Of a DNA stretch of 61,227 nt, positions 4,733 to 7,272 are shown in pieces (the stretch's first letter is position 1; the number at the start of each line of letters is the position of its first letter). A program made the position numbers and the translations under genes. The DNA comes from an uncultured Candidatus Saccharibacteria bacterium (lineage in GTDB: Bacteria; Patescibacteriota; Minisyncoccia; Phycocordibacterales; SBAW01), in NCBI GenBank assembly GCA_964482995.1, contig CAYZZC010000003.1, positions 1 to 61,227 of the forward strand, in the 5' to 3' direction. A model generated the notes under the pieces. The model was not told where the DNA came from. It worked only from the letters and a program-made list of their open reading frames with translations, and ran no database searches.

Positions 4733-4801
4733 GCCGCCCCTGGTTAGGAGCGGCTCTGGCGAAACATAGCCCTCCTTGTCCTGAAAGACAGATGGAAAAT
4801 C

Positions 4802-5100
4802 GTCTCACCAATAAATGCGGGGCAATGTTCCAATCGCCCAGTGGGCAGTTGCACTTTCGCCCCGCCCGCGCTTTCGCACGGTATTTAGAAGAACTTTCGG
4901 CGGACAGACCAAGAGTCGCTCAAGAGAGCAATTGATCAATTGTCCGCCGTCCGCACGCCGAAGCGTGCGAAATAGGGTGAGTGGCCATCGCGGCTACGTT
5001 TGAGATTTTCGCGCAAACAACCAAACAAACGACCCCTCTTTTCAATGCTCGATAGTTCGAATACTGAAAAGAGAGGCGGAGTGCGCAAGCGCACTCCGCC
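4802..5100 (-). ncRNA. Structured RNA module, copy A (downstream of the recombinase ORF)
   Basis: Shares all conserved helices with copy B but lacks the 5' strand of the closing stem. Details are in the findings. Confidence 0.6.
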
Positions 5101-5152
5101 GATGGACACCTCACATCTCGCCCATAAAGGCAAAAATGACATCGTCCACCTA

Positions 5153-6466
5153 TCACGCTGCTTCTTGACGAACTTCTGCCAACCGCATTGAGGGATACTG
5201 CTGGTCAAGGACGAACCTTTCAGGGTCGTTCTCGTACCTTGTCCACTCGCGGTAGAGCCACATCACAAACTGCGAGAGCGTGCGCCAGATAGCCATCTTG
5301 TGGATATGGCCATTGGTGTACTTTTTCACGCCCTTCTCGTCTGCGACTGGCTCTGGGTGCACCCGCCTGAAGTATGCCTTGTTCAGAAGGAGCTTTTGAC
5401 CCCAATACGAACCTGGCCGCCTGTTGAACTGGTCGCCAAGCAAGTACAGCGCTTGCCGCACGTCTGGGTTCCAGTTCGAGAGCTGGCCGCTCCTCCTGCG
5501 CGGGAACTTCCCGCTGAGGAGAATATGCACGCCGGCAAATGCCTTAAACTTTGTCTTGTTGGGGAACCGCCGGATATCAACAACACCCGAGACGATGCGC
5601 GAGGCGATAGCCCAACCCATGCCTTCGATGTCGCCGATGACGCTCTGCCAGACACCCGTTGCTTTGACAAGTTTTTCGAGCTCGCGCTCGCGCCTTGTTT
5701 CTTCGGCCAACATTGCTGACAAAACGACATCATTTGCCTTTACTTCGTCGTACTGCTTCTCCAGATTCCCTTCAGGGAAGTATCCGTCAGGGCCGCAGAA
5801 GATCGAGCCGATAAAGCGTTTGCCCAAACGCTGTTCACAAGCAATACGCGCTTTCATCACGTCGATGCGAGCGCCAAAGGCAACCCGCACAGCGATGATC
5901 TCACGGTCGCGCGGACGCACCTCATAGAAGAGTTCCGCACGAGCCTGGAGAGTCTGCGCCAAAAGCAAGGCGTCGTCATCCTTCGATGCATCGTCGCGAA
6001 GCCCTTTCAGCTTTGCGGCTGGCATGCGGAAGACGTAGGCTCCTTCAAGCTCCTCGCCGCGACGCGCAAGCGCCAAGGCAAAGTAGTCGCCCGAGCCGCC
6101 GAGGACCATCGCAACGCGGTCGCCCAGAGCTAAGCCGCCGAAGCCGCAGGCGATTTTATCGACGCGATAAAGTTCGCGGCCGATAGTCCTTGTCACAGAC
6201 CCTTCCGGCAAAACCTCGCCCTTCTTCACTTTGCGGAGCTTCAAATGACGGTCTGGGATACTTGATGGGACCTCTTCGCCTGCTTGGAGCGAGCGGAAAT
6301 ATGTCGAGAATTTCCCAAGCAAGAAATCATATTCTGCCTGTTCGTCCTCAAGCGGGTAAGCCGCCCAAACTTTTCCAAACTCATCCAAGATAACGACTTG
6401 CGTCGGGCGAGCTTCGCCCTCGGCAGTTTGTTTGACGCGGTGGCGAATGCCAATAAAGCGTGTCAT
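5153..6466 (-). CDS. IS110-family-like recombinase (DEDD/RuvC-like N-domain plus Transposase_20-like C-domain), atypical catalytic residues
   Basis: 437-aa ORF with AAAGGAG 7 nt upstream of the ATG. The C-terminal half IEGMGWAIASRIV..DIRRFPNKTKFKAFAGVHILLSGKF..WNPDVRQALY fits the IS110 consensus PGIG..a..l..igd..RF....aaYaGL.P....SG......rgn..LR.aLy. The N-terminal half has SKDDDALLLA, resembling KTDxxDA. Confidence 0.75.
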   Translation of the reverse strand: MTRFIGIRHRVKQTAEGEARPTQVVILDEFGKVWAAYPLEDEQAEYDFLLGKFSTYFRSLQAGEEVPSSIPDRHLKLRKVKKGEVLPEGSVTRTIGRELYRVDKIACGFGGLALGDRVAMVLGGSGDYFALALARRGEELEGAYVFRMPAAKLKGLRDDASKDDDALLLAQTLQARAELFYEVRPRDREIIAVRVAFGARIDVMKARIACEQRLGKRFIGSIFCGPDGYFPEGNLEKQYDEVKANDVVLSAMLAEETRRERELEKLVKATGVWQSVIGDIEGMGWAIASRIVSGVVDIRRFPNKTKFKAFAGVHILLSGKFPRRRSGQLSNWNPDVRQALYLLGDQFNRRPGSYWGQKLLLNKAYFRRVHPEPVADEKGVKKYTNGHIHKMAIWRTLSQFVMWLYREWTRYENDPERFVLDQQYPSMRLAEVRQEAA

Positions 6467-6547
6467 GCACGTCTCCTTTTCTCTCTGGTTGCAAGGCTCG
6501 TCTGCAAAGCAGACATGTCAAAGATCTAAAAAGATCAGCGGAGGTAA

Positions 6548-6620
6548 CCCTCCTCTCGAACGCGTAGTGATACGCATGCGAGAGGAAGGGCGAAGCATTT
6601 CCATGCTTCGCCGGTGAGAC
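6548..6620 (-). ncRNA. Structured RNA module, partial copy D (5' part only, forms the leader of the recombinase ORF)
   Basis: Closing-stem 5' strand (GGTGAGAC on the plus strand, 6613..6620), GNRA-capped hairpin 6589..6612, and a covarying long stem 6548..6590. It then diverges into two small hairpins and the RBS. Confidence 0.5.
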
Positions 6621-6656
6621 AAACATTCTTTTGTCTGAGTAGACAAGATCATTCTC

Positions 6657-6962
6657 GTCTCACCAATAAGTGCGGGGCAGCAATCGGATCGCCCAAAAGA
6701 GCACCGGTCTATACGCCCCGCCCGTGCTTGCGCACGGTATTTAGAAGAACTTTCGGCGGACATTCTAAGAATCGCTCGAGAGAGTAATCGCTCTATTGTC
6801 CGCCGTCCACACGCCGAAGCGTGCGAAATAGGGTGAGGGATCAGACAGAGATACGTTTCTAGAAAAAGTAGAAATATGTTCCTTCACGACCCCTCTTTCC
6901 AACATCCAAGGATCAGATACTAGAAAGAGGGGCGAAGCACTTTCATGCTTCGCCGGTGAGAC
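6657..6962 (-). ncRNA. Structured RNA module, copy B (complete unit)
   Basis: Bounded by the closing stem GUCUCACC (plus 6955..6962) and GGUGAGAC (plus 6657..6664). Seven conserved helices with GNRA and UUCG loops when read on the minus strand. Confidence 0.65.
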
Positions 6963-6998
6963 AACCATATCTTTGTCTAAGTAGACAAAAATTTTCTC

Positions 6999-7146
6999 GT
7001 CTCACCAATAAGTGCGGGGCAATGTCCCATCCGCCCAGTGGGCAGTCGCACTGTCGCCCCGCCCGTGCTTCTAGCACGGTATTTGTAAAAACGGGAGGTG
7101 ACATTTCTAGTTACGTTCAGCTGAACAAACGCGTATACGTCACCCC
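6999..7146 (-). ncRNA. Structured RNA module, partial copy C (3' half plus an unrelated 5' hairpin)
   Basis: Shares the GCGGGGC..GCCCCGC arm, the CCGTGC-loop-GCACGG hairpin and the closing-stem 3' strand. The 5' side is replaced by the GGTGAC...GTCACC hairpin (7099..7146). Confidence 0.5.
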
Positions 7147-7272
7147 CCCCCTCTGCCTTTCGGCAGAATTAAAAAGAAATTTCCTTCCTACTTTTTACTA
7201 TATAAAGATTTATATGTCAATATAACCACTAGTCTGCTGTTAAAGGAGCCTTAATTTGTTAGGATAAACTCT

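Follow-up and report, generated by a model that had tools for sequence, protein, structure and literature searches.

Within the 61,227-nt stretch of DNA analyzed here (taken at its full length and called the window; all coordinates refer to it), the region between tsaD and valS carries a single credible gene, an open reading frame (ORF) at 5153..6466 on the minus strand that encodes a protein of 437 amino acids (aa) from an ATG start codon. An AAAGGAG ribosome-binding site lies at 6479..6473, 6 nt ahead of the ATG. Gene and ribosome-binding site had been noticed in a first-pass annotation of this DNA, and both are borne out here, with the spacing at 6 nt. The same annotation had read the locus as an IS110-like recombinase gene lying in an insert between tsaD and valS and embedded in large structured RNA modules of ~306 nt, a candidate for a new RNA-guided recombinase system. 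We find that the protein is TasR, a member of the TIGR-Tas family, and that the flanks of its gene encode an array of small dual-spacer RNA units on the same strand. The locus is very probably a chromosomal stem-loop TIGR-Tas system from a Parcubacteria bacterium in the candidate phyla radiation (CPR), with an apparently nuclease-dead tasR flanked by ~12 dual-spacer guide RNAs.

A TIGR-Tas protein with apparently altered catalytic positions

The protein scored 128.6 bits against the NCBIfam model NF052498 ("TIGR-Tas system RNA-guided endonuclease," the TIGR_Tas_endo equivalog; cutoff, 100 bits), with the full model covered, whereas its score against the NCBIfam IS110 equivalog NF033542 was 39.4 bits, below the cutoff of 140. 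By these scores, it is not an IS110-type recombinase. The relatedness to IS110 that had been proposed for it does hold at the level of domains, in that the N-terminal half is RuvC-like and Pfam Transposase_20 was just above its gathering threshold (25.4 versus 21.3 bits); Pfam DEDD_Tnp_IS110 fell below threshold (20.7 versus 29).

The sole significant Protein Data Bank (PDB) sequence match of the single protein was 9MTY (TaTasR; 7e-8), a TIGR-TasR structure (Faure et al. 2025, PMC12045711), and a family profile of 38 homologs matched 9MTY at 1.4e-20 versus 0.024 for IS621. When an AlphaFold2 model of the protein (mean predicted local distance difference test score, 91.5) was compared with known structures by Foldseek, 9MTY ranked first (6e-12), followed by IS621 complexes (4e-8) and then TasH; the predicted fold is therefore nearer to TIGR-TasR than to the IS621-type recombinases with which comparison had been suggested. 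The Nop5/Nop56/58 proteins of small nucleolar ribonucleoproteins (snoRNPs) were weak fold matches to the model (E about 0.4). There are at least 582 homologs, and every named one comes from CPR/Patescibacteria. Many of these public homologs are labeled "transposase" or "hypothetical," and an IS110-like match beside structured CPR repeats should instead be read as TIGR-Tas.

The protein begins with M-x-R-x-IGIRHR, a start shared by longer relatives, and the Arg8 of GIRHR is nearly invariant among the 38 homologs. Judged by motif position and by the predicted strand beta-1, Arg8 sits at the expected place of the first RuvC catalytic Asp, and Val121, within an M-V-L-G-G-S-G-D motif, sits by motif at the expected place of the catalytic Glu. 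The two residues parallel the R8/V126 substitutions of CsTasR, and the RuvC nuclease chemistry thus appears to be lost in the window TasR. To this extent the option of a domesticated derivative, which the first-pass annotation had also raised, stands: key catalytic residues do appear to be gone. Ser318 aligns with the Ser of the YESGSS stretch of IS621, the likely catalytic serine of that enzyme, but the column holds N in an ortholog that is 83% identical, mostly D elsewhere, and D, N, or G in relatives, so that the nucleophile is not conserved. In longer members of the family (P0046 and P0093; 518 to 540 aa), ~100 further aa are inserted into the Nop C-terminal domain between "RRFW" and "KLKAFCGVH"; this is probably the same insertion that has been described in CsTasR as wrapping the stem.

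Dual-spacer RNA units on both sides of tasR

Both flanks of tasR are repetitive. One direct repeat pairs 4800-5045 with 6655-6902 (copies ~1856 nt apart), and another pairs 6585-6750 with 6927-7092 at a period of 342 nt, which equals a 306-nt module plus a 36-nt linker; the sequence of the flank repeats has no further occurrence in the 61-kb window. The upstream flank folds at -335 kcal/mol (z = -16.5), and 0 of 20 shuffled controls did as well. Repeat comparison and folding against shuffles thus bear out the earlier description of repeated, strongly structured flanks on the ORF strand. As for the proposed ~306-nt module, its boundaries are arbitrary, and each module is not one large structured RNA but four tigRNA units of ~50 to 60 nt together with plain linker hairpins. 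A TTGTCT-loop-AGACAA hairpin, previously assigned to the linkers and indeed found at both linker positions, is the inner hairpin of the class B units.

Each unit is ~50 to 60 nt long and has an outer stem of 7 to 10 bp whose two arms enclose a first half of C(G/A), 10 nt, and U(G/A), then a short hairpin, and then a second half of C(G/A), 10 nt, and UG. Each unit class has its own outer stem (A, GCGGGGC; B, GGTGAGAC; C, GGGGGTGAC; D, CGGCGGAC; E, GAGGGGTC; F, GGTGGAC). A strict pattern run over both strands of the whole window matched 11 units, all of them on the minus strand within 4756..7148, with 0 elsewhere, and shuffles of the array region gave a mean of 0.02 matches. All 11 lie on the tasR strand, no more than 700 nt from the gene; with a twelfth, degenerate unit (E2), the total comes to ~12 units and 24 spacers (Table 1). 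The same pattern found 123 matches on the tas strand, flanking tas, in 31 related loci, and 3 antisense matches.

Geometry-only scans without box letters were too redundant and noisy, and we replaced them with the composition of unconstrained letters and with a covariance model. At positions where the scan did not impose a letter, G followed C in 118 to 122 of 134 units and was then followed by A in 94 to 106 of the 134, giving the consensus CGA, nine unbiased positions, and UG. CGA-N9-TG is one of the stem-loop reference motifs of TIGRFinder, whose definition allows no more than 15 nt between the intervals and requires a palindromic stem of 5 bp or longer to close them. Units F and A3 have perfect CGA/TG boxes in both halves, and the others are one box letter off (CGT, CGG, CAA, or TA for box D); unit E1 has a 19-nt gap between its halves. 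Judged at the sequence level, the window units are stem-loop tigRNAs.

The covariance model, built from 10 window units only, had no further match in the window; in 30 other loci it had 111, of which 110 were on the tas strand and 1 was antisense. In the covariance-model alignment, 98.9% of cells pair (a figure that leans towards structure, as the alignment is fitted to the model; a window-only alignment gives the same picture), and all 11 pairs are changed on both sides. None of 500 shuffles reached the observed score, and no slid register came close, so that covariation is supported for the ~50- to 60-nt units. The repeats match no Rfam family, either in a search of 4000-8000 by E-value or in a search of the whole window at the gathering threshold, in keeping with the earlier remark that the module belongs to no named RNA family. 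The further proposal that the flanks encode several alternative guide-like structured RNAs on the ORF strand has held up.

Table 1. Features of the tasR locus in array order, with coordinates in the window
Feature	Coordinates	Strand	Description
Putative promoter region	7190..7220	-	TTGACA, then an AT-rich stretch that includes TATAGT; lies upstream of unit C1; nearly identical in L001
tigRNA unit C1	7093..7148	-	GGGGGGTGAC stem; segments tatacgcgtt and taactagaaa; strict pattern; covariance model, 43.6 bits
tigRNA unit A1	7014..7062	-	GCGGGGC stem; segments acagtgcgac and gatgggacat; strict pattern and covariance model
tigRNA unit B1	6953..7008	-	GGTGAGAC stem; inner hairpin TTGTCT..AGACAA; segments agaaaatttt and aagatatggt; pattern and covariance model
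Linker hairpin GGCGAAGCA..TGCTTCGCC	6931..6954	-	Followed by a pyrimidine-rich tail, terminator-like; paralogs at 6589-6612 and 5075-5100
tigRNA unit E1	6835..6895	-	GAGGGGTC stem; 19-nt inner hairpin; internal box D UA; strict pattern
tigRNA unit D1	6754..6805	-	CGGCGGAC stem; internal box D UA; strict pattern and covariance model
tigRNA unit A2	6672..6721	-	Scaffold as in A1 and A3; unrelated segments tatagaccgg and atccgattgc; pattern and covariance model
tigRNA unit B2	6611..6666	-	Strict pattern and covariance model
Leader, last upstream unit to tasR	6467..6610	-	Hairpins; ~50 nt identical to L001; AAAGGAG at 6479..6473
tasR	5153..6466	-	437-aa TIGR-associated protein: RuvC-like N-terminal domain (apparently inactive), coiled coil, Nop-type RNA-binding C-terminal domain
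tigRNA unit F	5101..5150	-	Begins 3 nt past the tasR stop codon; strict pattern and covariance model
Degenerate unit E2	4978..5038 (approximate)	-	Paralog of E1; 3' box D GG, decayed outer stem; missed by strict scan and covariance model
tigRNA unit D2	4898..4949	-	Strict pattern and covariance model
tigRNA unit A3	4817..4865	-	Segments match A1 at 15/20; strict pattern and covariance model
tigRNA unit B3 (last)	4756..4811	-	3' stem partly diverged; strict pattern and covariance model
Intrinsic-terminator-like hairpin with T tract	4731..4756	-	Array end; abuts the tsaD stop codon

Predicted function and alternative explanations

TIGR-Tas RNA-guided DNA-binding systems were first described in 2025, and with them a CPR clade of TasR that has an inactive RuvC domain and stem arrays (Faure 2025, PMC12045711). 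In this clade, tas has tigRNAs upstream as well as downstream of it, with an extended hairpin between the spacers, 9 nt of each 10-nt spacer pair, and CsTasR, with its R8/V126 substitutions, binds DNA without cleaving it and acts as an RNA-guided repressor (Xu 2026, bioRxiv 10.64898/2026.09.09.750476). The window locus shares with CsTasR (Candidatus Staskawiczbacteria) a CPR/Patescibacteria host, a RuvC domain that is expanded, and an Arg as residue 8, and it shares with CsTasR-type loci the placing of units on both sides of tas and on the same strand, outer stems of 7 to 10 bp, two 10-nt spacers (9 nt variable) with a short hairpin between them, CGA/UG boxes, and the lack of a Y/H processing tail. 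It differs in the length of the protein (437 versus 547 aa, without the C-terminal-domain insertion of the longer relatives), in its long linkers with conserved plain hairpins, and in a clearly visible, recently duplicated block of four units. TaTasR, the dual-repeat TIGR-TasR that is the best PDB match in both sequence and fold, has its domains in the same order (RuvC, coiled coil, Nop C-terminal domain) but an active RuvC domain (D11), and its 36-nt tigRNAs come from two alternating short repeats, whereas the window units are closed by variable palindromic stems. With a protein that scores above the TIGR-Tas equivalog cutoff and RNA units that fall under the published stem-loop tigRNA definition, the locus is not the new RNA-guided recombinase system that had been put forward. 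TIGR-Tas is a known kind of system, to which the locus adds an example, and it opens no new class of RNA-guided system.

That every part of the locus is on the minus strand suggests a single unit of transcription. A single transcript would carry about seven tigRNA units, the leader, tasR, about five further units, and the terminator. By analogy with the characterized systems, this precursor would be cut in the linkers to release stem-loop tigRNAs of ~50 to 60 nt, each predicted to fold into an outer stem that encloses two halves, the first running from box C (CGA-like) through spacer A (9 nt) to box D (UG) and the second, beyond the inner hairpin, from box C' through spacer B (9 nt) to box D'. 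Each tigRNA would then be bound by a TasR dimer, and an 18-bp DNA target would be recognized through the pairing of one 9-nt spacer with each of its strands. Since the key RuvC positions appear to be lost (Arg8 and, by motif, Val121), binding would not be followed by cutting, and the complex would block transcription, as has been found experimentally for CsTasR. We infer by this analogy that the most likely role of the complex is that of a repressor that binds DNA under RNA guidance.

Several observations weigh against this interpretation or parts of it. The inactivation of RuvC appears from motif position and from the published description of CsTasR, an acidic residue (D165) is invariant in the family, and the NCBIfam family name says "endonuclease." Units E1 and D1 have UA rather than UG at the internal box D, a CUU processing motif is only mildly enriched after the units (31% versus 18% background), and the linkers are unusually long, with conserved hairpins. 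A scan for the sigma-70 consensus called no promoter, which leaves the TTGACA/TATAGT region as a candidate only. Finally, when the spacers were searched in tandem as rc(A)+B and also as A+rc(B), with junction trims, we found no 18- to 20-bp target at up to two mismatches, whether in the 61-kb window or in the DNA flanking the related loci. The best matches in the window had 3 to 4 mismatches, which is chance level, and in the 31 related loci the only matches overlapped the units themselves; the complementarity of guide loops to element junctions that the first-pass annotation had envisaged was likewise not found. In a 596-Gb genome collection, an exact 18-mer is expected ~17 times by chance (2 x 596e9/4^18), so that matches there are uninterpretable, a problem that the authors of the published work report as well. 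The hypervariability of the spacers between close relatives (see below) suggests that the targets are fast evolving, such as mobile elements, rather than conserved housekeeping genes.

An IS110-family recombinase or transposon of the bridge-RNA type, or a new variant of one with several large guide RNAs, is a highly improbable alternative. It draws on the Transposase_20 match, the weak DEDD_Tnp_IS110 match, the strong fold matches to IS621 structures, and Ser318, which in the window protein alone aligns with the likely catalytic Ser of IS621; and IS621 (IS110/IS1111; PDB 8WT6) does share with the window a homologous RuvC-like domain, a Transposase_20/Nop-type RNA-binding domain, and a guide RNA beside the gene. 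Against it stand the large shortfall from the IS110 equivalog cutoff and the much better family-profile match to TasR than to IS621, and the first position of the DEDD tetrad appears to be Arg8; neither the tetrad nor the conserved Ser nucleophile of IS110/IS1111 appears to be present. The RNAs, which Rfam does not match, are ~50-nt dual-spacer units and not a single ~180-nt two-loop bridge RNA, and there is no sign of mobility: the locus is present in one copy in 61 kb and is syntenic in a relative, a member of the Parcubacteria (Gr01-1014_56; L001).

More serious, though still improbable, is a locus of the same RNA architecture whose TasR is an active nuclease that cleaves invading DNA in defense or in competition between elements. 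The family name, the invariant D165, the cleavage of DNA by TaTasR and ParTasR, and spacers that are hypervariable between close relatives, as in an arms race, would all suit it. What tells against an active enzyme is that Arg8 and Val121 match R8 and V126 of CsTasR, for which no cleavage was seen in vitro, and that the CPR clade has been described as having an inactive RuvC domain (Faure 2025, PMC12045711). We give just as little credence as to the IS110 explanation to a snoRNP-like system in which a dead-RuvC TasR, together with its tigRNAs, would direct an activity to RNA, such as modification or binding of rRNA or tRNA, rather than to DNA. Archaeal and eukaryotic box C/D snoRNPs (Nop5/Nop56/58) have in common with the window TasR a Nop domain, a coiled-coil dimer, and an inactive RuvC-like N-terminal domain, and with the units two guide segments flanked by box C/D-type motifs; the clade has been speculated to be an intermediate toward snoRNPs (Faure 2025, PMC12045711), and the locus lies between two tRNA-related genes, tsaD and valS. 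However, it contains no fibrillarin or L7Ae partner and no methyltransferase or other effector gene, and its spacers are not conserved between close relatives, whereas rRNA or tRNA targets would be. No spacer was complementary, at one or no mismatch in 10 nt, to the 10 tRNAs of the window, which were the RNAs covered by this search (the window holds no rRNA), and the characterized relative, CsTasR, binds DNA and represses transcription.

Array history and other features of the window

The relative in Parcubacteria has a TasR that is 83% identical and the same valS-tas-tsaD neighborhood. No other syntenic relative was found, and this one has the locus; no empty tsaD-valS site and no defined element ends were found among relatives, so that the earlier description of the region as an insert is not upheld. 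Between matching units of the two loci, identity is 93% in stems and boxes and 34%, close to random, in spacers. A chromosomal stem-loop array with a syntenic relative thus allows the evolution of scaffold and spacer to be compared directly.

Within the window, the array shows a higher-order repeat, a block of ~342 nt with the order A-B-(hairpins)-E-D, made up of four units with different stems and present in ~2.5 copies. Spacer columns were less identical than non-spacer columns in all four comparisons of paralogous blocks: 17/34 (50%) versus 113/128 (88%) for 7092-6927 and 6750-6585, 16/36 (44%) versus 136/146 (93%) for 6837-6655 and 4981-4800, 14/18 (78%) versus 70/77 (91%) for 7092-6997 and 4894-4800, and 3/17 (18%) versus 66/97 (68%) for 6962-6838 and 5100-4982. 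Single unit pairs still share spacer letters (A1/A3, 15/20; D1/D2, 13/20; B1/B2, 12/20), and A2 is unrelated to A1 and A3. Such a pattern fits a history of recent block duplication followed by fast spacer change, and it would fit growth by blocks with rapid spacer turnover that involved no acquisition machinery. The arrays of relatives (L003, 3513-6137; L013, 3328-5616; and L001) also show higher-order repeats, in which the order of the stem classes is fixed (abcd abd.. abcd in L003, for example), and spacer identity in them is near random (0.26 to 0.33) even between units with the same stem.

The growth and maturation of TIGR arrays are listed as open questions in the published papers, and the locus gives small clues to both, in its duplicated block and its linker hairpins. 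The compensatory changes in the GGCGAAGC linker hairpin keep its pairing in the copy at 5100-5075 and in the copies of L001. Further plain hairpins are conserved in the linkers, CCGTGC..GCACGG before each A unit and CGCACGC..GCGTGTG before each D unit. The linker hairpins (GGCGAAGC..., CCGTGC..., CGCACGC...) may be maturation signals, and the one with the pyrimidine-rich tail may act in processing or attenuation. The locus may also be a vertically inherited chromosomal regulator rather than a mobile defense element. We put forward only tentatively, and with some doubt, that the array displays TIGR array growth and maturation as a whole, with block duplication and spacer turnover, linker-hairpin signals, and a vertically inherited regulator.

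Some details of single array elements deserve mention. A stretch of the leader at 6497-6545 on the minus strand, CCTCCGCTGATCTTTTTAGATCTTTGACATGTCTGCTTTGCAGACGA, is the same as 3918-3966 of L001, ~50 identical nt even though the proteins are only 83% identical; besides two hairpins, it holds a motif that resembles half a unit (UG-UCUGC-UUU-GCAGA-CGA and then 9 nt). The stretch may be a site for TasR binding or for autoregulation, or it may be what is left of a unit. In unit E1, spacer A (TGAAGGAACA, 6877-6886) is nearly complementary to the 3' stem of its own unit at 6835-6844, with 2 mismatches; this self-complementarity produced a spurious "target" match, and pairing with its own stem may give the unit an alternative fold. 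The 5' arm of the outer stem of the first unit is a run of nine G at 7142-7150 on the minus strand, where L001 has GGTGGTG, and the tract may be prone to slippage.

The two neighboring genes are assigned by NCBIfam models, tsaD (3650..4732) by TIGR03723 at 324 bits (cutoff, 296) and valS (7273..9444) by NF004349 at 856 bits (cutoff, 704). ValS (7273-9444, plus strand) has 723 aa and covers positions 2-700 of the 860-position model, with the C-terminal part missing; the end of valS overlaps the start of a weak PrsW-like ORF (9410-10225, plus strand), and the ortholog in L001 has 892 aa, with ~190 extra internal residues. Elsewhere in the window, an S-adenosylmethionine (SAM; S-box) riboswitch at 32938-33036 on the plus strand scored 46.8 bits, just above the Rfam gathering score of 44.4.

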